From: Dictyoglomaceae bacterium
GTDB lineage: Bacteria; Dictyoglomota; Dictyoglomia; Dictyoglomales; Dictyoglomaceae
DNA length: 64,000 nucleotides
Assembly: GCA_049718665.1 (NCBI GenBank)
Contig: JBNARO010000004.1
Location: 7,815-71,814, forward strand
Direction: 5' to 3'
Shown: positions 13,777 to 22,709 of the stretch, one piece after another
Position numbering within the stretch: position 1 is the first letter of the stretch
How the letters are laid out: the number at the start of each line of letters is the position of its first letter
Translations under genes and position numbers: made by a program
The notes under the pieces: generated by a model
Seen by the model: the letters and a program-made list of their open reading frames with translations, nothing else
Database searches by the model: none
Told to the model about the DNA's origin: nothing

Positions 13777-14349
13777 ATGAAAAAGTGCATAATTACTCTT
13801 TTGCTTTTTGTCCTAATAATTAATTTTTCTTTTTCCCAAACTCAAACTCCTACAGTGACTTCTAAAGAGAAAAAACCCGTAACAATTTTTGTCCTTCATA
13901 TTGAATCCTTTAGTAAGATCTATAAATCAAATTTCGAGAAGAATATAAGAGCCTTTGATGATACTTTTAAGCTTGGTGTCTCTTTATATCATCCCATAAT
14001 TGGACTTAATATTTCTTGCTATACAAAGACTAATCAAAAAGGACTCCCATATCCTACATTAGTAAATAGAGTTCTTAAGGAACTTTTACCTATTTTAAAT
14101 GATATTGTCCTTCCTTTAAAAACTCGCATTAATATAATAATAATGGTGCAAGATAAAAATGATCCCTTCTTAGGGAAGACATTATTTATAACCTTTCCAT
14201 ACTCCTCTCTCAAAGATTTCATGACCAAAAAGGATCAAGATGCCTTTGCAAGACAAATGATTGTCCTTCTTGAAACAGAGAAATTAAATTATCAAAAGGG
14301 AACTTTTACTTCCTCTCAATATGATTGGGAATGGATTTTAAAATTATAA
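13777..14349 (+). CDS. secreted hypothetical protein
   Basis: Signal peptide MKKCIITLLLFVLIINFSFS and a good RBS (AAGGAGG). No recognisable family. Confidence 0.6.
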   Translation: MKKCIITLLLFVLIINFSFSQTQTPTVTSKEKKPVTIFVLHIESFSKIYKSNFEKNIRAFDDTFKLGVSLYHPIIGLNISCYTKTNQKGLPYPTLVNRVLKELLPILNDIVLPLKTRINIIIMVQDKNDPFLGKTLFITFPYSSLKDFMTKKDQDAFARQMIVLLETEKLNYQKGTFTSSQYDWEWILKL

Positions 14350-14364
14350 TTTCTGAGGATACTA

Positions 14365-15015
14365 ATGAAAATTTTTAAATTTTTAATTACTTTTCTTTTA
14401 ATTTTTTCCATATCCTTTGGGATAATAGTAGAGGAAATAGTCCAAAAGGTAGTGGAGACATATAATAAATTAAATACTTTTAGTAGCATCTTAGAGATTT
14501 ATAATAGAGAAGGGAATAAAGAAGAATTTTCCATTTATGAATTCTATTTTCAAAAACCAGATATTTATAGACTAAATATGATTGAGGGAAGAGATAAAGG
14601 AGCGGTAGCTATATTAAGAGATGGAAAAGTTAGAGGACATCATGGAGGACTTTTAAGATTTATTATTTTAACAGTAAATCCTGATGATCCTTTAGTTCTT
14701 TCTATTAGAAAGGGAAGAATTGATGAATCGGGCTTAGAATATGTGGTTCAACAGCTTACACAAGGTTCTTCTTTGAAATTGATTGGTGAAGAGAATATTG
14801 CGGGATATCTTTGCTATGTATTGGAGATGGGATTAAGTAAAGATAGACTTCACACTTATGTATCCCAAAAATTCTATATCGATAAAAATACTTTTATTCC
14901 TATTCAGTTAGAACAATATGAAAATTATAATGGAGTTAAAACCTTAACTCACAGAAGAACATATAAGAATTATAAGATTAATCCAAATTTAGATCCTAAT
15001 ATTTTTAAGATTTAA
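14365..15015 (+). CDS. LolA/RseB-like (outer-membrane lipoprotein-sorting fold) secreted protein
   Basis: Signal peptide, then VQKVVETYNKLNTFSSILEIY...YEFYFQKPDIYRL, typical of LolA-like DUF proteins. Confidence 0.55.
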   Translation: MKIFKFLITFLLIFSISFGIIVEEIVQKVVETYNKLNTFSSILEIYNREGNKEEFSIYEFYFQKPDIYRLNMIEGRDKGAVAILRDGKVRGHHGGLLRFIILTVNPDDPLVLSIRKGRIDESGLEYVVQQLTQGSSLKLIGEENIAGYLCYVLEMGLSKDRLHTYVSQKFYIDKNTFIPIQLEQYENYNGVKTLTHRRTYKNYKINPNLDPNIFKI

Positions 15016-15030
15016 GAAAGGAGGATAAAA

Positions 15031-15588
15031 ATGTATAAAGAGTTGAAACATAATTTTATATATCTTCTTCATCCACTACCTGCCTTTTTAATAACCAGTA
15101 TAAGTAAATTGGGAAAACCCAATGTAATGACTGCATCTTGGGTTATTCCTATGAGTATTACTCCACCTTTAGTGATTTTGAGTCTTAGACCTGAGAGATT
15201 CACTTCTCAGCTGATAAAGGAAACAAGAGAATTTGTAGTAAATATGCCTCCCTATGAATTGGCTGAGGCTACTTTAATATGTGGAAAAGTATCAGGAAGA
15301 GATAAAGATAAATTTAAGCTTGCTAATCTAACGCCAATTCCTGGGAATAAGGTTAAGGCACCAATAATAAAAGAATGTATAGCTCATATAGAATGTGCTT
15401 TAGAAGATATTATAGATGTTAAGGGAGACCATCTTTTATTTATAGGGAAGGTAGTATATAGCCAAGTGGAAGAGGATAAGTTTGATAGGATATATACTCT
15501 TGAGAAATTTAATCCCGCTATGTATTTAGGGCAGGATACATATACTACGTGTAAGGAGGCTGAAAAAATTATTCCAAACATGGGGTAA
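15031..15588 (+). CDS. flavin reductase-like FMN-binding protein
   Basis: Split-barrel flavin reductase pattern (NVMTASWVIPMS..PPLV..S.RP...T) in 185 aa. Confidence 0.8.
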   Translation: MYKELKHNFIYLLHPLPAFLITSISKLGKPNVMTASWVIPMSITPPLVILSLRPERFTSQLIKETREFVVNMPPYELAEATLICGKVSGRDKDKFKLANLTPIPGNKVKAPIIKECIAHIECALEDIIDVKGDHLLFIGKVVYSQVEEDKFDRIYTLEKFNPAMYLGQDTYTTCKEAEKIIPNMG

Positions 15589-15641
15589 ACGTTAGATTAG
15601 AAAAGGTAACAAAATCTTTCTTTAGAAAAAGGGAAGAAAGA

Positions 15642-16658
15642 GTGTATGCATTAAGAGATGTAGATTTATATGTTCCAGAAGGAAAAACTCTTTGTGTTAT
15701 TGGACCTTCTGGATGTGGAAAAACTACTCTTTTAAAGGTTATAGCGGGTCTTGAGAAGCAAGATTCTGGGAATATTTATTTTAATGATAAATTAGTGAAT
15801 GATCTTCCTCCTAAGGATAGAGGAATTGGAATGGTTTTTCAGAATTATGCTCTATATCCCCATTATGAGGCTCGGGGAAATCTTTCTTTTTATTTTTGGA
15901 TAAGAAAAAGACCAGAAGAAGAGATCGATGAAAGGATAAGAGAAACTGCAAAAATTTTGGGAGTTGGTTTTGAGGATCTTCTTCCTCGGAAGCCAAAGAC
16001 ATTATCAGGAGGAGAACAACAAAGGGTTGCTGTAGGAAGATGTATTATAAGAAATCCCACTTTGATGCTTATGGATGAGCCGTTATCAAACTTAGATGCT
16101 AAATTAAGGGTAATAACAAGAACAGAAATCAAAAAACTTCTTGTAAGATTTCAAGTAACTACTATTTATGTTACCCATGATCAAAAAGAGGCACAAGCCT
16201 TAGGAGATCTTATTGCGGTAATGGATCAAGGAAGAATACTGCAAGTGGGAACTTATGAGGAGCTTATTGAAAATCCTGTAAATACTTTTGTCGCATCCTT
16301 TGTAGGAGAACCTCCTATGAATCTTTTTAAAGGAGAAGTGGTAAATAATAAATTTTTCTTTCAGACTGTAGAAATACCGATTCCTTTTAATTATAATAAA
16401 AGAGAAATAATCTTGGGATTCCATCCTTCAAAAGTGGAGATAAGTAAAGAGCCTACAAATATAATTGGAGAAATCTTTTTTGTAGAAAGTCTTCCCGCAG
16501 ATAAATTTCAAACTCTTCATTTGGAATTTGGAAAGAACAGTTTAAAAATTCAAGTTCCAAGAGAAGAAGGTCTTTTTAAAGTAGGAGATAAACTCTACTT
16601 AAAACTTCCTGAAAAAATTTACTTCTTTGATCCTGATTCTGGAAAAAGAATATATTGA
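15642..16658 (+). CDS. MalK/MsmX/UgpC-type sugar ABC transporter ATPase; true start probably upstream
   Basis: Walker A GPSGCGKTT, signature LSGGEQQRV, Walker B LMDEP, and a C-terminal regulatory/OB domain. The conserved N-terminal strand VRLEKVTKSF is encoded in frame upstream of the GTG at 15642. Confidence 0.85.
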   Translation: MYALRDVDLYVPEGKTLCVIGPSGCGKTTLLKVIAGLEKQDSGNIYFNDKLVNDLPPKDRGIGMVFQNYALYPHYEARGNLSFYFWIRKRPEEEIDERIRETAKILGVGFEDLLPRKPKTLSGGEQQRVAVGRCIIRNPTLMLMDEPLSNLDAKLRVITRTEIKKLLVRFQVTTIYVTHDQKEAQALGDLIAVMDQGRILQVGTYEELIENPVNTFVASFVGEPPMNLFKGEVVNNKFFFQTVEIPIPFNYNKREIILGFHPSKVEISKEPTNIIGEIFFVESLPADKFQTLHLEFGKNSLKIQVPREEGLFKVGDKLYLKLPEKIYFFDPDSGKRIY

Positions 16659-16667
16659 GGTGATATT

Positions 16668-17618
16668 ATGAGGAAAAAGATTTTATTTTCTATCTTGATT
16701 TTGTTTCTTCTTATAACTCCACTTTTTTCTTGGTCTGCTCATAAAGAGATGACTCAGATAATTTTAGAAGAATTTCCATGGCTTAGAAAATTTGATAATA
16801 TTACTGTAACCCCATATACTTATAATGATCCTTCTCCTTATAATCCATCCTATGTTATCCAATATAGGGGAGAAAAAATTGGTGATAAAATTTCTGCTAT
16901 TACTATTATCACAAGATATGTAGAAGAACCTGATAATGGTATGGATGAAAATCTAAATCTAAGCCCATTTCAGAAATTAATGGGTGGAAGTTCAGGTTGG
17001 AGACATATGTATTTTATTGCCTTTTCAGGAGCATTAAAACTTGGGGAAGCTCCTAAAAGATGTCTACATTTTTGGAATTTAGCAAAGGAAGCCTTCCAAA
17101 GAAAAGATTATTATTGGGGATTTAGATTTTTTGCATATAGCCTTCATTATCTACAAGATCTTTCCATGCCCTTTCATGCATACCCTATGCCTTTAAAGAA
17201 TGTTGCTCTTAATATAATTAATTTAGATAAGCTTATATCTCAAGGAGAAAACCATCACTATGTATTAGAGGCTTATCAGGAATATCAGGTAAAGAATAAG
17301 AATCCTAAATATATAAAGGTATTAAAGGAAGCAAACCCTTTAGAAATTAAAAATCCAGAAGAAGCTGCAGAGAAAGCTGCATGGCTTTCAAGAGATTTTA
17401 TGGGTAGATTATGGGACTTACAGATAAAATATTATGGACATGATATAAACAATAAAAAGAATTTTAAGGCAGATCCCAGACTTTTCTCTTTTAAGTACGC
17501 TTCACCGATAAAAGATGAATATGATAAAACTATTCTTCAGGCATTAGAACTTTGTGCGGGATGGACAAAGGGATATTTAAATTTTCTAAAAGATTTCTTG
17601 AATAAACTGGAGGGATAA
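16668..17618 (+). CDS. secreted zinc-dependent phospholipase C / S1-P1 nuclease-fold protein
   Basis: Signal peptide ends ...PLFS, followed by WSAHKEMT, i.e. the N-terminal Trp plus His zinc ligands of this fold. Later HYLQDLSMPFHA. Confidence 0.5.
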   Translation: MRKKILFSILILFLLITPLFSWSAHKEMTQIILEEFPWLRKFDNITVTPYTYNDPSPYNPSYVIQYRGEKIGDKISAITIITRYVEEPDNGMDENLNLSPFQKLMGGSSGWRHMYFIAFSGALKLGEAPKRCLHFWNLAKEAFQRKDYYWGFRFFAYSLHYLQDLSMPFHAYPMPLKNVALNIINLDKLISQGENHHYVLEAYQEYQVKNKNPKYIKVLKEANPLEIKNPEEAAEKAAWLSRDFMGRLWDLQIKYYGHDINNKKNFKADPRLFSFKYASPIKDEYDKTILQALELCAGWTKGYLNFLKDFLNKLEG

Positions 17619-17621
17619 GAG

Positions 17622-17761
17622 ATGAAAAAACATATAGCTATATTTGGATTAATACTTGTTTGTTTTATCCCCCTATTGAGGTAGATGTTTTGAAAATTCA
17701 AAGAAGAGATCTTCTAATTATTATTTCTGCTACAGGAAGTTTAATTTTTACAAAAGCCTGA
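17622..17761 (+). pseudogene. N-terminal remnant of a HlyD/MacA-type periplasmic adaptor gene
   Basis: GGAGGG RBS, then MKKHIAIFGLILVCFIPLLR* (TM anchor). One frame over, EVDVLKIQRRDLLIIISATGSLIFTKA* is the canonical adaptor start. Nothing further follows. Confidence 0.45.
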
Positions 17762-17818
17762 GGGAATAAGTGAGTTAAATTCTAGTCTTAAAGTTGGCTA
17801 AGAAAGAAGGAGTCATTT

Positions 17819-18781
17819 ATGAAGCCAGTTAGCATTGAGGACAGGGTCAAGGGCGGCCTCTACGGCGTGGCCGTTGGAGACGCCCTGGGGGCCACCGTGG
17901 AGTTTATGAGCCGTGACAAAATCCGGGAGAGATACGGGGTACTACGGGACATCGTGGGCGGAGGCTGGCTAAACCTCCGCCCCGGAGAATGGACGGACGA
18001 CACAGAGATGACTCTGGCCGTGGCCGAGGGGATTATAGCCGACCCAGATGACCCGGTTCCACACATCGGGCAGGCCTTCATCAGGTGGCGGAATACCAAC
18101 CCGCCGGACATAGGAACCACCATCAGGGCAACATTCAGGATTTGGGATCGGGATAACCTCACTCACGAGCAATGGCATGTTGCGGCCGAGCGGGCCCACT
18201 GGGAAATGGGAGGTATGAGCGCAGGCAACGGGGCGCTGATGCGGACTTTGCCGGTGGGAATCGCCTACCGATTGATACCTGACGTTTACCGCTTTGCTGT
18301 GAATATAGCACGGATGACGCACTGGGACATAAAGGCAGCTCTTACTTGCGCCGTCTATTCTTTAGCTGTGCGGAACATTTTTGAAGGTGCAGCAGACTGC
18401 TATGAAGCCATAGTTGAGGCCGTACATTTGGTGCGAGAGATAATAGCCAGGAAAGATTACAAGGAAGAGCTAAGAGAGATTGCGGAAAGCCCTATCAATC
18501 GTGATGGGAGTAACCTTAGACCAACCGGGTACACAGTGGACAGTTTTCACTGCGCCATATGGTCGGTGGTGGCAGCCAAGGACTTCGAGGACGCAGTGGT
18601 TCGGGCCGTAAATCTTGGCGGAGATGCGGACACCATCGGAGCTATTACCGGCGGCTTGGCGGGGATCTACTGGGGATATGGGGCCATCCCGCATCGCTGG
18701 TTGGAGAAGTTTACGCGGGAACAGCGGGCCAGGCTGGACCGGGCGGCGGAGGGGCTACTTAAGATCCGAGAAGGTAATTAG
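17819..18781 (+). CDS. ADP-ribosylglycohydrolase (ARH/DraG) family protein
   Basis: GVAVGDALGATVEF, EWTDDTEM and LGGDADTIGAITGG metal-binding motifs are all present. Intact 320-aa ORF with AAGGAG 6 nt upstream of the ATG. Confidence 0.9.
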   Translation: MKPVSIEDRVKGGLYGVAVGDALGATVEFMSRDKIRERYGVLRDIVGGGWLNLRPGEWTDDTEMTLAVAEGIIADPDDPVPHIGQAFIRWRNTNPPDIGTTIRATFRIWDRDNLTHEQWHVAAERAHWEMGGMSAGNGALMRTLPVGIAYRLIPDVYRFAVNIARMTHWDIKAALTCAVYSLAVRNIFEGAADCYEAIVEAVHLVREIIARKDYKEELREIAESPINRDGSNLRPTGYTVDSFHCAIWSVVAAKDFEDAVVRAVNLGGDADTIGAITGGLAGIYWGYGAIPHRWLEKFTREQRARLDRAAEGLLKIREGN

Positions 18782-19120
18782 AGGTGGGGCTATGCACTAT
18801 TGGAGTTATCAAATATGAATCCATGAGACGCCAGGATGATAAGGCAGCAGGCCAACCGGGCCGACCGCTTGAAGAACTAATTATCATGGCCAACCCGCAA
18901 TACCGAGCACAACGCCGAGCGAATACATAAAGGTACCCACCGCCTGGATACCCCTCTGGAATAGTGGGGGCGGGGTAGTAAAGGTCAAGGTGGAAGAAAA
19001 GGCCGCGATATATTTCTTAGGGACCTACCACGGTCGCTCTCTCGCATTTGAGGCCAAACATTGGGGGAATGTCACTAATTTTGAGAAGATCATGAGTCTG
19101 CTGACGCGCTCTTCTCTATA
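17819..19120. other. compositionally foreign GC-rich segment (horizontally acquired DNA or assembly chimera)
   Basis: Abrupt switch from about 30-35% to about 55-60% G+C (eye estimate), with matching GC3-rich codons. Both boundaries fall inside remnants of an efflux operon. Confidence 0.8.
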
Positions 19121-19121
19121 A
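18823..19121 (+). pseudogene. recU-like Holliday-junction resolvase remnant (frameshifted and 3'-truncated)
   Basis: MRRQDDKAAGQPGRPLEELIIMANPQYRAQRRANT* continues in the next frame as YIKVPTAWIPL...YFLGTYHGRSLAFEAKHWGN. This follows the RecU order RG.tLE...N.YY...A.IHK.PTP...DY.G.Y.G..IDFEAK. The C-terminal half is missing. Confidence 0.6.
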
Positions 19122-19481
19122 GAGGATCTTCTCTCTGCTATGAATGAGATTATAAACATATTGACCTTAACCTTAGCAGGAATCGCTGGCGTATCTCTAA
19201 TAGTAGGTGGAATTGGAATTGTGAATATCATGTTAGTAGGATAAGAAAGGCAATTTCTCATAGGATCATCAATCCTTGGAATATTAGGAGGATCTATTGG
19301 TATAGTTTTAGCATTATTAGTAGGTGAAATTATTGTTAGATTTGAAATACCATTCTCTTTAAGTTATGATATTTTAGCTTTAGGATTTTTCTTTTCTCTT
19401 TCCATCGGATTAATTTTTGGAGTTTAGCCAGCTGTCAGAACTGCCAATTTAGATCCTATTCAGGCTTTAAGATCTGAATAA
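19122..19481 (+). pseudogene. C-terminal remnant of an FtsX/MacB-type ABC permease
   Basis: EDLLSAMNEIINILTLTLAGIAGVSLIVGGIGIVNIMLVG*ERQFLIG...GLIFGV*PAVRTANLDPIQALRSE*. Has an in-frame TAA and TAG, the TERTREIGIRKALGA block is deleted, and the N-terminal ~280 aa are absent. Confidence 0.75.
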
Positions 19482-19568
19482 AATCTTAAACAATTTTAAA
19501 TTATTGACAAAAAATTTCAATTTTATAAAATTATAATTGATAATTTTGAAAAAGGAGATTAAAATTTT

Positions 19569-19961
19569 ATGGCACATTATTTGCCAAGATGTCCCATATG
19601 TGGAAGAGAGATGACCATCATAAAATTGAAGTGTAATAACTGTAATATTACTATTGAAGGAGAATTTCTGGCTAATAAGTTAGCATCATTAACACCAGAG
19701 GAACAAGAATTTTTAGAACTATTTTTAAGGACAAGAGGAAACGTTAAGGAAATGGAAAGAATACTTAAAATATCTTATCCAACATTAAGAAACAAATTAG
19801 ACAATATGTTAAGATCCATAGGTATAATGCCTATAGAAGAGGAAGAATCAAAAAGTAAGGCAAGAGATATTATTGAGAAGTTAGAAAAGGGAGAGATAAC
19901 TGTTCAAGAGGCCTTAAAGATTTTGGATAAGGAAAAAGATAAAGGAGAGGAGGTTTCATAA
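19569..19961 (+). CDS. DUF2089-family zinc-ribbon plus HTH protein
   Basis: CPICG...CNNC zinc ribbon followed by LTPEEQEFLELFLRTRGNVKEMERILKISYPTLRNKLDNM. Confidence 0.8.
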   Translation: MAHYLPRCPICGREMTIIKLKCNNCNITIEGEFLANKLASLTPEEQEFLELFLRTRGNVKEMERILKISYPTLRNKLDNMLRSIGIMPIEEEESKSKARDIIEKLEKGEITVQEALKILDKEKDKGEEVS

Positions 19962-19964
19962 AAA

Positions 19965-20498
19965 ATGTCCTTTAGGATTTTTTGGGGATTTGTTTTTCTA
20001 ATTTTAGGAGTTTCACTAATTGCTCGTAACTTTGGTATCCCTATATTGAGTGAAATTTGGAAACTATGGCCCCTAATATTTGTTTATCTTGGATATATAA
20101 TTCTCTCTCGTACGAGCAAAAAAAATAATTATTTTAGGAGGTTTAAAAAAATGAGAGAAGAAAGATTTAAAATTTTAAAGCTTATTGAGGAGGGCAAGGT
20201 AAAGGCAGAGGAGGCTGAAGAATTACTTAAAAAATTAGAAGAAACTCAAGAAAAAGAAAAAAGATTTTTAAAAGTTAATGTGATTGAGAATGGAAAAACA
20301 AAAGTAAATGTAACTATACCTATATCACTAATAAGATGGGGATTGAAATTTGCCAGTAAATATTCATCAGGAGAATATGGGGAGAAAATTGAAATTACAC
20401 CGGAAGAAATAGAATCACTCATTAATGATCCAGATTTTAGAGGAAGAATTGTGGATATTAATGAGGAGAATGAACAAGTTATTGTGGAGATTGTTTAG
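19965..20498 (+). CDS. membrane protein with a LiaF-like TM region and a SHOCT/LiaX-like helical motif
   Basis: Two N-terminal TM helices, then EERFKILKLIEEGKVKAEEAEELLKKLE. Starts 3 nt after the DUF2089 gene. Confidence 0.6.
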   Translation: MSFRIFWGFVFLILGVSLIARNFGIPILSEIWKLWPLIFVYLGYIILSRTSKKNNYFRRFKKMREERFKILKLIEEGKVKAEEAEELLKKLEETQEKEKRFLKVNVIENGKTKVNVTIPISLIRWGLKFASKYSSGEYGEKIEITPEEIESLINDPDFRGRIVDINEENEQVIVEIV

Positions 20499-20505
20499 AT
20501 TAATT

Positions 20506-20539
20506 GGGGGCTTATAATTTTTTTTATCTATAAGCCCCC
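20506..20539. terminator. bidirectional intrinsic terminator
   Basis: GGGGGCTTATA / 12-nt T-rich loop / TATAAGCCCCC, between convergent stops at 20498 and 20541. Confidence 0.7.
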
Positions 20540-20540
20540 C

Positions 20541-21269
20541 TCATAAATTTATAATCTCATATCTTCCCCAAATTCCCAAATACTTTCCCATAATAATTAT
20601 TACTTCATGGACTTCTGGAAATCCTTTTGCAAACTCTATTCCTAAATTTATATCTTCAGGTTTTTGAATCATATTTCCTACCGCTGTAGCAAGAGTATCA
20701 GAAAGTATAGCGGATTCTGAGACTATAACTACTGCATCAGCATTTCCAAAACTTAAAGAGGGGCCTACAGTAGCAGAAGAAGTGCATATTCCGAGAGTGG
20801 AATTTTGGGGTATTAAAATTCCCAATTTATTACTCCATGGTGATTTCCCTGCAAAAATAGCAACTTTCCTTTCCTTTTTTGTACTTAAAAATATATCTCC
20901 ACCATTTTCTATAATGACTTGAGATGTATATTTTAATAAGTCTTTTCCTACAAATTCTGCTATAGCACCTGCAACTCCTGCCATAGGACCGACGCCTACC
21001 CTACCTGCCCAATATGCCATCTCTTTTACAATTGATGGAGCAGAAGGTAAAACTTTGTAGGGTTCTAAGGTTATGTAAAATAGTAGATCCAGCCTTATAT
21101 ATTCCTCTAATTGCTCTCTATAATATTCTAAGATTTCTTTTGCCTCCTTTTGTAATTTCTTTTCTGCCAAAATAAAAAGATCACTCTCCCTGATTTTTAC
21201 AGGAAAACCAATAAGATCATCTGCTTTCATATATTTTCTATATTCTCTTTTTACATACTCATTTGACAT
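20541..21269 (-). CDS. UPF0280 / COG2122 (ApbE-like) protein
   Basis: 242 aa with GVGPMAGVAGAIAE and a GNAD...S pattern typical of UPF0280. Confidence 0.65.
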   Translation of the reverse strand: MSNEYVKREYRKYMKADDLIGFPVKIRESDLFILAEKKLQKEAKEILEYYREQLEEYIRLDLLFYITLEPYKVLPSAPSIVKEMAYWAGRVGVGPMAGVAGAIAEFVGKDLLKYTSQVIIENGGDIFLSTKKERKVAIFAGKSPWSNKLGILIPQNSTLGICTSSATVGPSLSFGNADAVVIVSESAILSDTLATAVGNMIQKPEDINLGIEFAKGFPEVHEVIIIMGKYLGIWGRYEIINL

Positions 21270-21353
21270 TTTTGCACCTTGGTAATAAAATTACTAACGT
21301 TCTTTAAATGTAATTATAATGGAAAAGAGGTGTAATTTAAATAAATTAGTTAT

Positions 21354-22709
21354 ATGGATATTTTAGAAGCAGGAATATCTCCTTTTAGGAGAAATAATCC
21401 TGCATGGTTTTTTATTAGAAGTTTTATACTTGTAATTCTTACCGGAACTTTTCTCTTGATGCTCCCCATATCCTCCAAAAGTGGAAAATTTACAGATTTT
21501 ATTACTGCTTTATTTACAGCTACTTCCGCTACTTGTGTTACAGGACTTGTAGTTGTAGATACGGGAACTTATTGGTCTAATTTTGGGCAGTTAGTTATTA
21601 TGAGTTTAATACAGATTGGTGGATTGAGTTATATTGTTCTTGCAACTTCTTTAATGATTCTTCTTAATAGGAGAATTCCTTTAAGAGAAAGGATTATGAT
21701 TCAATTTTCTTTAAATGCCATTTCTATAAAGGGAATAGTAGGATTACTTAAAGGAGTTTTAATATCTGTCCTCATATTTGAAGGTATTGGGGCTTTATCT
21801 CTATTTACCATTTTCATTAGACAATATCCACTACTTAAGGCTATAAAATTTGCAATCTTTCATGCTATTTCTGCCTTTTGTAATGCGGGTTTTGATCTTA
21901 TAGGCGGATTTAAAAGCTTCACAGATTATGTAGATAATATCCAATTGAATCTTACAGTCACATCTCTAATAATTACAGGAGGAATTGGGTTTTTTGTTAT
22001 ATATGATATTTACCAGAAGATAAGAAGAAAGAAAAATCATTTATCCCTTCATTCTAAAGTAGCATTATTCACTACTTTATTTTTAATTATCCTTGGAACT
22101 ATTGTAATATTTGTCTTAGAATATAATAACACTTTGAAACCTCTTTCTTGGCAAGGGAAAATATTAGGTTCTTATTTCCAGAGTGTTACACCAAGAACCG
22201 CAGGTTTTAATACCTTAGATATTGGGAAGATGAAACCTGCTACATGGCTATTTTTAATATTTTTAATGTTCATAGGGGCATCCCCAGGAGGAACAGGTGG
22301 TGGTATAAAAACTGTTACTTTTTTGGTCCTTGTTCTGAGTATTTATACTATTCTTTTAGAAAGGAAACATGTGCATTTTAAAAATAGAAGTCTTAATTGG
22401 GAAACTGTGAAAAGAGCATGGGCAGTGTTTTTCTTCTCTCTTAATTTAGTTTTAATATCTTGGTTTTTATTACTTCTTTTAGAGCCTTTTGAACCTCTAA
22501 AATCTTTATTTGAAGTAGTATCTGCCTTTGGAACTGTGGGTTTATCTACAGGGATAACTCCACAGCTTTCTTCTTTTGGAAGGCTTGTGATTATTTTTAC
22601 TATGTTTTTGGGGAGGGTAGGAACTGTAACTGCAGGTTTAGCTCTCCTTTCTTCTATAAATCACAAGAAAGTAATAGACTATCCTATGGAGGAGGTAAGT
22701 GTAGGATAA
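21354..22709 (+). CDS. ktrB: TrkH/KtrB-family potassium uptake membrane subunit
   Basis: 451 aa, multi-TM, with repeated selectivity-filter-like segments (TATCVTG, CNAGF, RTAGF, FGTVGLS). Confidence 0.88.
   Translation: MDILEAGISPFRRNNPAWFFIRSFILVILTGTFLLMLPISSKSGKFTDFITALFTATSATCVTGLVVVDTGTYWSNFGQLVIMSLIQIGGLSYIVLATSLMILLNRRIPLRERIMIQFSLNAISIKGIVGLLKGVLISVLIFEGIGALSLFTIFIRQYPLLKAIKFAIFHAISAFCNAGFDLIGGFKSFTDYVDNIQLNLTVTSLIITGGIGFFVIYDIYQKIRRKKNHLSLHSKVALFTTLFLIILGTIVIFVLEYNNTLKPLSWQGKILGSYFQSVTPRTAGFNTLDIGKMKPATWLFLIFLMFIGASPGGTGGGIKTVTFLVLVLSIYTILLERKHVHFKNRSLNWETVKRAWAVFFFSLNLVLISWFLLLLLEPFEPLKSLFEVVSAFGTVGLSTGITPQLSSFGRLVIIFTMFLGRVGTVTAGLALLSSINHKKVIDYPMEEVSVG

Follow-up and report, generated by a model that had tools for sequence, protein, structure and literature searches.

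Why does a short, G+C-rich stretch of DNA lie between the broken ends of an efflux operon in a Dictyoglomaceae contig, and does the one complete gene that it carries serve the new host? The locus lies within a 64,000-nucleotide (64-kb) stretch of contig JBNARO010000004.1 (assembly GCA_049718665.1) that was analyzed whole and that we call the window. A first-pass annotation, made from the letters alone, had read the locus as a deletion-plus-replacement event that captured foreign DNA, and this reading now has behind it the synteny of sister loci, the identification of the donor, and an independent assembly of the right junction. An internal fragment of a temperate phage very probably replaced about 1.7 kb of a Dictyoglomaceae adaptor-permease operon via illegitimate recombination (Table 1).

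A segment of foreign composition

The sequence from 17791 to 19063 (1273 bp) has a G+C content of 0.555 against a background of 0.324 +/- 0.020 (z = 11.4) and a tetranucleotide distance of 0.84 against 0.35 +/- 0.04. In 200-bp windows, G+C rises from 0.30 (17600-17799) to 0.595 (17800-18299) and has fallen to 0.29 by 19200. This is the sole G+C island of the window, as the remaining 1-kb bins are all at or below 0.39. The ADP-ribosylglycohydrolase (ARH) ORF inside the island has a GC3 of 0.64, compared with 0.19 to 0.27 for the adjoining genes. The foreign, GC-rich segment of the first-pass annotation is thus borne out by a clear step change in G+C, by GC3, by tetranucleotide distance and by the donor match, but its edges, which had been put at 17819 and about 19120, are in truth 17791 and 19063. 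The left edge is 17791 because the phage intergenic region and its Shine-Dalgarno sequence belong to the segment. On the right, homology stops exactly at 19063 in all five phage loci that align over RecU.

Table 1. Features of the replaced locus (positions in the window)
Feature	Position	Strand	Basis or remark
HlyD-family membrane-fusion adaptor remnant, host pseudogene	17622..17790	+	tblastn, sister alignments
Foreign segment, piece of the replication/recombination module of a Firmicutes temperate phage	17791..19063	+	blastn, composition
Phage-derived Shine-Dalgarno AAGGAG	17807..17812	+	read from sequence; 6 nt 5' of ARH start codon
Intact 320-aa ADP-ribosylglycohydrolase gene, DraG/Tri1-like, PF03747	17819..18781	+	Pfam, PHROG, PDB matches
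Spacer, ARH to RecU start	18782..18835	+	variable slot of phage family; relatives hold 0-2 small ORFs
RecU Holliday-junction resolvase 5' pseudogene stub, phage	18836..19063	+	tblastn, DNA alignment
Junctional stretch, 58 bp, 43% G+C	19064..19121	+	sequence, alignments
MacB_PCD/FtsX permease remnant, host pseudogene	19122..19481	+	tblastn, sister alignments

The donor is a phage family of thermophilic Firmicutes

By blastn, positions 17791-18780 are 95.6% and 95.1% identical to two phage-like contigs (L008 and L009, respectively), positions 17843-18784 are 92.7% identical to a prophage-like region of a Syntrophothermus MAG (L006), and over 18832-19063 the match is to the RecU 5' end of L009 and L006, at 87% identity. 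The order of the phages, ARH and then RecU, is kept in the segment. All relatives have ARH in a module that runs SMC/AAA, DUF5131, Phage_rep_org_N, DnaC-like, nucleoside deoxyribosyltransferase, ARH and RecU, followed by a sigma-like gene, an MTase, ParB_N, a 494-aa ORF, portal and Mu F; the 494-aa ORF occupies the position of the terminase large subunit and has no Pfam match. The ARH gene is also present in IMG/VR viral genomes of 40 to 44 kb. Its product is identical to that of a "Dictyoglomaceae bacterium" MAG, while the rest of its 90% cluster, like the next-best matches, comes entirely from Firmicutes or phage-like contigs. The phage family was found in Syntrophothermus, Thermoanaerobacterium and Thermanaeromonas, and every identified host is a member of the Firmicutes. 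The donor lineage, which the first-pass annotation had left to BLAST, is a temperate phage family of thermophilic Firmicutes, and the foreign DNA extends exactly from 17791 to 19063. The island has no nucleotide match in the INPHARED phage collection, so this family is absent from deposited phages. The ARH and PLC-like proteins of the window had no exact match in a gene-position index, and no spacer-like k-mer links were found between the phage loci and the rest of the window.

The interval behind ARH varies within the phage family: ARH and RecU are nearly adjacent in L002, and one extra ORF lies between them in L009 and two in L006. The spacer of the window aligned to neither L008 nor L009. 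The RecU gene has decayed to a stub that retains aa 4-76 of 191, spread over two reading frames; it has three indels in its 230 bp, 1-bp and 3-bp ones among them, and is cut off at 19063. In tblastn, the RecU of L009 (PF03838, E = 9e-35) matched with aa 4-40 at 18844-18954 and with aa 33-76 at 18930-19061, in differing frames. The phages themselves are mosaic, L006 and L009 being 99.7% identical in RecU and more diverged in ARH (dS 0.105, dN 0.032). For this reason the difference between 87% identity in RecU and 95% in ARH cannot be read as neutral decay of the stub.

The ancestral operon and its remnants

Three sister Dictyoglomota loci (L003, L004/L011 and L010) are syntenic with the window on both sides and have no G+C island. 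Where the window has its island, they encode an intact HlyD-type adaptor of 381 aa and an intact MacB/FtsX permease of 410-411 aa; the L010 orthologues match HlyD_D23 and HlyD_3 (adaptor) and MacB_PCD and FtsX (permease). The sister alignments therefore place an intact operon between the PLC-like and DUF2089 genes, as the first-pass annotation had expected, but the adaptor and permease stand there alone. The ATPase gene that had been counted among the losses is absent from the sister operons, and the ABC ATPase encoded upstream has a MalK-type OB domain, with the PLC-like gene lying between it and the operon. The disrupted genes are those of MacAB/FtsX exporter operons, an HlyD-family adaptor and a MacB_PCD/FtsX permease, with two differences: the ancestral locus has no adjoining ATPase gene, and both genes, intact in the sisters, are dead remnants in the window.

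On the left, about 55 N-terminal codons of the adaptor survive behind its native Shine-Dalgarno sequence (GGAGGG, 17610-17615). The ORF that starts at ATG 17622 had been taken for a separate gene encoding a TM anchor; it is actually the adaptor N terminus, thrown out of frame by a 34-bp deletion that appears as a gap in the alignments to L003, L004 and L010. It reads MKKHIAIFGLILVCFIPLLR up to a stop codon, and one frame over the remnant reads ...PPIEVDVLKIQRRDLLIIISATGSLIFTKA up to a stop codon. The adaptor start seen earlier in that second frame is indeed of HlyD type, although it is not distinct from the 17622 ORF. With the L010 adaptor as query, tblastn aligned aa 19-55 at 17642-17752 with 54% identity; homology is clear as far as about 17754 and becomes weak over the remaining stretch, which ends near 17790.

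On the right, the L010 permease aligned by tblastn over aa 273-411 with 71% identity, interrupted by gaps and stops. The remnant reads EDLLSAMNEIINILTLTLAGIAGVSLIVGGIGIVNIMLVG, a stop, ERQFLIGSS...GV, a second stop, and then PAVRTANLDPIQALRSE up to the terminal stop. It has suffered two deletions, including one of 60 bp that took away the SVMERIREIGIRKAVGAKRKDIL block, and carries two in-frame stops, one at a deletion junction (TAA, 19242-19244) and one by substitution (TGG to TAG, 19425-19427). These are the TAA, TAG and missing block that had been reported at first sight, now found by both tblastn and alignment. Against the FtsX profile the remnant scores only 18.2 bits, where the cut-off is 25.5. 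With codons 1 to about 55 of the adaptor and 273 to 411 of the permease as all that is left, the loss of the adaptor body and of most of the permease holds. Substitutions on the window branch of the permease remnant amount to 22/360, compared with 3.6 to 9.6% in adjoining functional genes. This is no excess, which argues that the event is recent when set against the split from L010.

Junctions and probable mode of capture

The 58 bp between the end of phage homology and the permease remnant have no homology to the phage loci and are probably scrambled host permease DNA plus about 21 to 24 bp of extra filler, judging from short matches: the 10-mer ACTAATTTTG (19074-19083) is collinear with L010 and L003, and GAGAAGATC (19083-19091) is the reverse complement of GATCTTCTC (19125-19133). 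Exact microhomology at the junctions is limited to 3 to 6 bp, inside short patches of imperfect similarity, and is short enough to occur by chance. Neither TSD nor TIR was found at 17791 and 19063, no direct repeats flank the segment, scans of the window returned no tRNA and no Rfam RNA, and a tandem-repeat and CRISPR scan of the window was empty or irrelevant. The first-pass annotation had likewise seen no transposase, integrase, tRNA target or direct repeats. A transposon or IS element was rejected, as TIR and TSD are absent and ARH is the only complete ORF. An integrated prophage was also rejected, as integrase and att repeats are lacking and no match to four phage loci lies elsewhere in the window.

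A related reading is that a complete phage integrated in the operon of a Dictyoglomaceae ancestor and that deletions later left only an internal 1.3-kb relic. The retained ARH-RecU order would fit such a history, as would the several independent small deletions in the RecU stub, in the operon ends and in 19064-19121, which indicate that the locus is deletion-prone. The deletions would, however, have to take out both attachment junctions and, besides nearly all the prophage, some 1.7 kb of host sequence, and at least two would be needed, each across a phage-host boundary. What remains derives from the interior of the replication module, a long way from any integrase or att site, and tblastx with four phage loci as queries across the entire window gave no match outside 17700-19200, leaving the 64 kb without further phage DNA. 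The sister loci have no prophage at the site, the identified hosts are all Firmicutes, and the phage G+C of 50 to 56% is far from the 32% of the host. We consider a decayed prophage quite unlikely.

Because the source is a MAG, the segment might instead be a piece of a co-occurring Firmicutes phage misjoined to a Dictyoglomaceae contig during assembly or binning. The left junction is present in one assembly only, and an exact 28-mer across it had no match in JGI metagenomes. The right junction is present in a second assembly: an independent ENA contig (L017) aligns to 18160-20861 without gaps at 99.67% identity (9 SNP differences), spans the junction and has the same permease lesions, so the right junction is real and not a chimera. 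Further, the contig around the insert is 73 kb long and has syntenic host DNA to its left and right, the sequence shared at the junctions (at most 6 bp) is far under any assembler k-mer, and a misjoin does not explain the deletions and stops in the adjoining operon ends. An artefact is largely refuted and, in our estimate, extremely improbable.

The reading that we favor is capture of a phage fragment by illegitimate recombination: a mid-genome piece of phage DNA would have been joined to the chromosome by recombination at the level of microhomology, and about 1.7 kb of the two-gene MacA/MacB-like efflux operon would have been swapped for it. Site-specific integration is the less likely route; the fragment was probably captured in one step, either where the chromosome had broken or as foreign DNA was being taken up. 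Acquisition of foreign DNA by illegitimate or microhomology-mediated recombination is an established general mechanism. The locus resembles such acquisitions, and cryptic prophage relics, in having no site-specific signature, homology of a few bases at the junctions and one surviving phage accessory gene. It differs from them in that donor and recipient belong to different phyla, that the DNA is still about 95% identical, and that the fragment is internal to the phage and not a prophage end. A preprint, bioRxiv 10.1101/2023.11.22.568220, discusses integration of a related, microhomology-based kind.

The ARH gene and its known relatives

The ARH gene (963 bp) is the single complete gene of the segment. 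Its product matches Pfam PF03747 over the full profile (1-287/287; E = 4.4e-72; 243.6 bits, cut-off 26.2) and PHROG 6572, "ADP-ribosylglycohydrolase" (E = 8e-61). Among solved structures the best match is DraG (2WOC, E = 3e-42), and Tri1 (6DRE) follows with E = 1.6e-37. The gene is intact, with the predicted catalytic and metal-binding residues conserved: TVEF (E28), TDDTE (D60, D61), PPDIG (D97) and GGDADT (267-272) align to DraG, whose catalytic triad is E28, D60 and D97 (PMC8120803 Table 2). Substrate specificity is predicted from homologues at roughly 35 to 45% identity.

With DraG (dinitrogenase reductase-activating glycohydrolase; Rhodospirillum rubrum 2WOC, Azospirillum brasilense 3G9D), ARH shares full-length PF03747 and the triad and GGDADT motif at equal residue numbers, but it has no DraT, nitrogenase or PII/AmtB context. 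The genes around it are phage replication genes in the donors, where it is an accessory gene between a nucleoside deoxyribosyltransferase-like gene and RecU, and the PLC-like gene, efflux remnants and DUF2089 gene in the window; within the 64 kb covered for the host, a DraT/DraG nitrogenase switch is not what these neighbors encode. A second relative is Tri1 of Serratia proteamaculans (6DRE), an ARH-type protein that confers immunity to the T6SS ADP-ribosyltransferase Tre1. Tri1 is encoded beside Tre1 and plugs its cognate toxin with an N-terminal extension. The window ARH has no adjacent ADP-ribosyltransferase (ART) toxin gene and, as the alignment covers Tri1 residues 70-355 only, no such extension, so that it does not form a Tre1/Tri1-type pair. 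Tri1 is described as a DraG-like hydrolase that erases Arg-ADP-ribose in biological conflict (PMC8120803 section 5.6), and a stand-alone "eraser" could plausibly work in a similar way. AdfN (NADAR) of T4-like phages is an orphan eraser that neutralizes DarTG1 (PMC11825919). Here the likeness would be one of concept only, a phage ADP-ribosylglycohydrolase without a toxin that undoes host defense, since AdfN has a NADAR fold and a DNA substrate, whereas ARH is predicted to have the DraG-like all-helical fold and to act on protein arginine.

Possible role of ARH in the new host

ARH is probably transcribed by read-through from upstream host genes: they share its strand, a search between the PLC-like gene and ARH gave no terminator-like site, and ARH has its own AAGGAG ribosome-binding site; the Shine-Dalgarno stretch is kept in L008, L009 and L006 save one mismatch (AAGGGG there). 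The product would be an Mn/Mg-dependent hydrolase that removes mono-ADP-ribose from arginine, like DraG and Tri1. In the phage, its most plausible role would be to reverse ADP-ribosylation by host toxins or defense systems. In the new host it could be an orphan eraser or a young passenger.

That ARH is a passenger without a host role, intact only through recent capture and due to decay, is a serious possibility that we place slightly short of even. The permease remnant without excess substitutions implies that little time has elapsed, and after so recent an event an intact ARH may just lack time to decay. The captured DNA shows little or no amelioration of G+C and GC3 (GC3 of ARH is 0.642, compared with 0.664 in the nearest phage alleles). 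No partner transferase was found either: the unannotated ORFs that flank ARH in the phages contained no ADP-ribosyltransferase partner (Pfam, E up to 0.1), no ART domain was present in the ORFs beside ARH in the phages or in the window, and PADLOC assigned ARH to no defense system. Against a passenger, the other coding remnants in the same 1.9 kb (adaptor, RecU and permease) have indels or stops while the 963 bp of ARH have none, and two strains 0.33% apart keep ARH open over the sampled part. Window-specific changes in ARH are 24 synonymous and 9 non-synonymous (P = 4e-9 against neutrality), and dN/dS against the phage alleles is 0.13 to 0.14; part of the window branch was passed in the phage, however, and this purifying selection therefore cannot be dated to the period that followed the transfer.

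It is unlikely, in our judgment, that ARH has been domesticated as an orphan eraser against Arg-ADP-ribosylating toxins or defenses, or that its presence records the ability of a Firmicutes-type temperate phage to deliver DNA to Dictyoglomota in hot anaerobic habitats. If either were true, the locus would document directly, at the genome level, phage-mediated gene flow between phyla and the selective retention of a counter-defense gene. If the host uses the hydrolase, DraG-like ARHs would join the ADP-ribose erasers that phages carry and that pass between genomes as protective genes on their own. Failing that, the locus would be an ordinary recent scar of horizontal gene transfer, of interest mainly for MAG annotation (two pseudogenes and one phage-derived gene). 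As it stands, horizontal gene transfer at this locus is cleanly documented but of an ordinary kind. It shows in good resolution how one accessory gene of a phage crossed a phylum boundary in nature: donor family, ancestral locus, both breakpoints and the loss of the efflux operon can all be read from the sequence.

Mutational direction was considered as a means of dating the transfer and rejected: window-specific changes are biased from G+C to A+T (20 versus 10), and the phage branch has an equal bias, no weaker at 18 versus 7.

Phage origin of the foreign segment

Our results confirm that this Dictyoglomaceae lineage recently captured, across a phylum boundary, a 1.3-kb piece of a phage genome and lost an adaptor-permease efflux operon in the exchange. 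The instance itself is new; events of this type are well known, as is the enzyme family involved. The capture would matter more if the new host proved to express the hydrolase that it brought in and to be protected by it, or if the phage family proved to reach Dictyoglomota. In 200-bp windows, G+C rises from 0.30 (17600-17799) to 0.595 (17800-18299) and returns to 0.29 by 19200, and no other 1-kb bin within the 64-kb window exceeds 0.39. The island (17791-19063) has a G+C content of 0.555 versus 0.324 +/- 0.020 for background windows of the same length (z = 11.4), a tetranucleotide profile at a distance of 0.84 from that of the remaining window, versus 0.35 +/- 0.04, and an ORF with a GC3 of 0.64, that of neighbouring genes being 0.19-0.27, so the compositional step seen in the first-pass annotation is both large and real.

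The ORF encodes a full-length ADP-ribosylglycohydrolase (ARH; PF03747, E = 4e-72; PHROG 6572). This 320-aa product is identical to a protein encoded on a 73-kb contig of a Dictyoglomaceae bacterium MAG, in which the proteins on either side of it have accessions that run consecutively. Its 90%-identity cluster holds eight proteins, which besides the window's own come from a Syntrophothermus MAG and metagenome contigs, and the next matches (75-83%) include Thermoanaerobacterium sp. DL9XJH110, a Halanaerobiales MAG and Thermanaeromonas toyohensis. Gene context could be judged in five related loci with enough flank (L002, L006, L007, L008 and L009; L001 was too short), and in all five ARH lies within one conserved phage module, ordered SMC/AAA, DUF5131, Phage_rep_org_N, DnaC-like, nucleoside 2-deoxyribosyltransferase-like, ARH, 0-2 small ORFs, the Holliday-junction resolvase RecU, sigma-like, DNA methyltransferase, ParB_N, a 494-aa ORF without a Pfam match at the terminase large-subunit position, portal and Mu F. 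IMG/VR viral genomes of 40-44 kb also contain ARH homologues. The island is a fragment of this module, and its nearest alleles are those of L008 (95.6% DNA identity over 17791-18780), L009 (95.1%) and the Syntrophothermus locus L006 (92.7% over 17843-18784). RecU of L009 and L006 matches at 87% over its first 230 bp, and the window keeps a stub of residues 4-76 of 191, in two frames and with 1-bp and 3-bp indels. In each of the five phage loci that can be aligned in RecU, homology ends at exactly 19063, and those loci match each other further on; these matches therefore set the limits of the foreign segment (see table). Among deposited phage genomes, no nucleotide-level match of the island was found.

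Features of the captured segment and related loci
Feature	Locus	Coordinates	Description
PLC-like gene	window	16668-17618	secreted protein, 316 aa, adjoining island
Foreign segment	window	17791-19063	1273 bp; phage intergenic region with Shine-Dalgarno, ARH, short spacer, truncated RecU pseudogene
ARH	window	17819-18781 (+)	intact ORF
RecU match	window	18832-19063	5' part of RecU
Clustered differences	window; L017	18811-18831; 686-706	21 bp just upstream of RecU start
Inverted repeat	window	19083-19091 / 19125-19133	perfect, 9 bp
Permease stop TAA	window	19242-19244	made at deletion junction
Permease stop TAG	window	19425-19427	TGG-to-TAG change
Missing ancestral DNA	L010	7121/7163 to 8860/8897	roughly; ~1.7 kb
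Adaptor-permease unit	L003; L004; L010	10954-13309; 10954-13306; 6955-9313	no adjoining cognate ABC ATPase gene
Mosaic regions around ARH	L006; L009; L002	7358-10029; 3732-4055; 6942-7112	phage family

Phages of this family have a mosaic structure around ARH. The ARH-RecU slot holds zero, one or two ORFs, one of them MmcB-like, and in the Syntrophothermus allele a 219-aa ORF without a family match overlaps and replaces the first ARH codons. Between L006 and L009, RecU is 99.7% identical and ARH clearly more diverged (dS 0.105, dN 0.032).

The ancestral operon and its remnants

The search for related Dictyoglomota loci gave three distinct ones: L003 and L004 belong to species-representative genomes and L010 to a JGI metagenome (a further locus, L011, matches L004). 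They share 74-80% DNA identity with the window over 14002-17750 and 19122-22000, in identical gene order and with no G+C island. All carry exactly two genes between the PLC-like and DUF2089 genes: a HlyD-family adaptor of 380-381 aa (HlyD_D23, HlyD_3) and a MacB_PCD and FtsX permease of 410-411 aa that overlaps the adaptor 3' end by 23 bp. An ATPase gene is absent from this interval in every sister locus, and the ATPase partner of the unit, if any, must be encoded elsewhere. The window retains adaptor codons 1 to ~55, in which a 34-bp deletion places the signal-anchor and PPIEV...IISATG parts in different frames, and permease codons 273-411, which have lost 28 bp and 32 bp in two deletions. 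Deletion plus replacement by foreign DNA, as the first-pass annotation proposed, is borne out by the intact sister operons and the phage donor, and the remnants are as it described, with both in-frame stops and a missing TERTREIGIRKALGA-type block. Two of its details need correction because of the two-gene sister operon and the 34-bp frame split: what it took for a separate short TM-anchor ORF is the N terminus of the adaptor itself, and the ATPase gene it counted as lost was never at this locus.

At a threshold of E <= 1e-3, the adjoining PLC-like protein matches no Pfam family. The close homologues found number just three (L003, L004/L011 and L010; 77-87% identity), with a further partial match of 29% in L005, a betaproteobacterial MAG locus, and the protein appears to represent an uncharacterised family that is mostly confined to Dictyoglomota.

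Junctions and probable mechanism of capture

At the left junction, host-like ...TCTTAAAG is joined to phage ...(TCA)AG/TTGGCTAAGAAAGAAGG, where sister genomes read TTTTAAAG(C/T)TAAGAGTAAAAGCAGGAG; the exact overlap is 3-5 bp, inside an imperfectly similar patch. At the right junction, phage ...GCCAAACATTG is followed by GGGGAATGTCACTAATTTTG, which resembles host AGAGGAAAAACTAATTTTG with a collinear 10-mer, and beyond this 10-mer ~37 bp stand against 16 bp in the sisters before clean permease homology resumes at 19122. The captured piece is an interior part of the phage genome. We found no integrase, att repeat, tRNA, target-site duplication or terminal inverted repeat at the island, in agreement with the earlier failure to see mobile-element machinery, and nothing resembling these phage loci elsewhere in the window; a complete prophage that integrated here and was then eroded by deletions is an unlikely source. 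The simplest reading is one illegitimate replacement at the level of microhomology, in which the phage piece would have taken the place of host DNA; the junction microhomologies are so short that chance alone could produce them. The inverted repeat (GAGAAGATC and GATCTTCTC) brackets the ~37-bp stretch that stands for 16 bp of ancestral permease, and may have been left by templated (snap-back) filler synthesis in end joining, or be there by chance.

An assembly artefact was considered and rejected: the island lies inside a long contig, flanked left and right by syntenic host DNA, the overlaps at the junctions fall well short of assembler k-mer length, the operon stubs beside it bear real lesions, and the right junction is reproduced without a gap in a separate ENA assembly. 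This contig, L017 (ERZ3623746 NODE_10697), matches window 18160-20861 at 99.67% (9 mismatches, 0 gaps). It takes in the 3' two-thirds of ARH and the RecU stub, crosses the 19063/19064 breakpoint and the 58-bp filler, and includes all the permease lesions. For the left junction, an exact 28-mer across it gave no independent sighting in JGI metagenomes. L017 is 99.7% identical to the window from nt 35 on; its nt 1-34 (window 18126-18159) agree at 9 of 34 positions and match no phage allele either, and are probably the junk end of a 1.3x-coverage contig but could reflect a second rearrangement inside ARH of that strain. Five of the nine differences cluster near the RecU start, where L017 keeps the phage-like Shine-Dalgarno AGGAGG and the window has TGAGAC; at four of these five positions L017 has G/C where the window has A/T. 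The cluster looks as if the dead RecU start were still decaying or ameliorating, or like a small patch of recombination.

Age of the event and predicted role of the hydrolase

The operon is intact in the closest sister, L010 (PLC-like protein 87% identical), so the event is later than the split from it. The permease remnant shows no raised load of window-specific substitutions (22/360) compared with neighbouring functional genes (3.6-9.6%), and the event is therefore recent on that scale. Against the nearest phage alleles, ARH shows dS of ~0.14, dN of ~0.019 and dN/dS of 0.13-0.14, and its 33 lineage-specific changes comprise 24 synonymous and 9 non-synonymous (P = 4e-9 against a neutral expectation of 76% non-synonymous), values that are no proof of selection in the new host because the branch was partly spent in phage. 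All other coding relics in the 1.9 kb carry indels or stops, the 963-bp ARH has none, and over the part sampled it is open in two strains 0.33% apart, a pattern suggestive of selection in the new host.

The best solved-structure matches of ARH are DraG (2WOC, E = 3e-42; 3G9D), Tri1 (6DRE, E = 1.6e-37) and Thermus ARH (2CWC). The DraG catalytic triad E28/D60/D97 (PMC8120803, Table 2) is present at the same positions, as is the GGDADT metal motif, and on account of this homology and conservation we predict that the product is an active mono-ADP-ribosyl hydrolase that depends on metal and is most likely specific for arginine. PADLOC returned no match for ARH. Unlike DraG, it has no DraT/nif context; unlike Tri1, it lacks a Tre1-like neighbour, in the phage loci and the window, and the Tri1-type N-terminal extension. 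In phage it is best read as a putative orphan "eraser" that would reverse host-imposed ADP-ribosylation, with AdfN, a NADAR protein of T4-like phages that counters DarTG1 (PMC11825919), as a model by analogy and not by family membership. In the Dictyoglomaceae host, no terminator-like site was found upstream of ARH, the gene shares its orientation with the PLC-like gene and the adaptor stub before it, and AAGGAG is kept 6 nt before its ATG, which together make read-through expression plausible.
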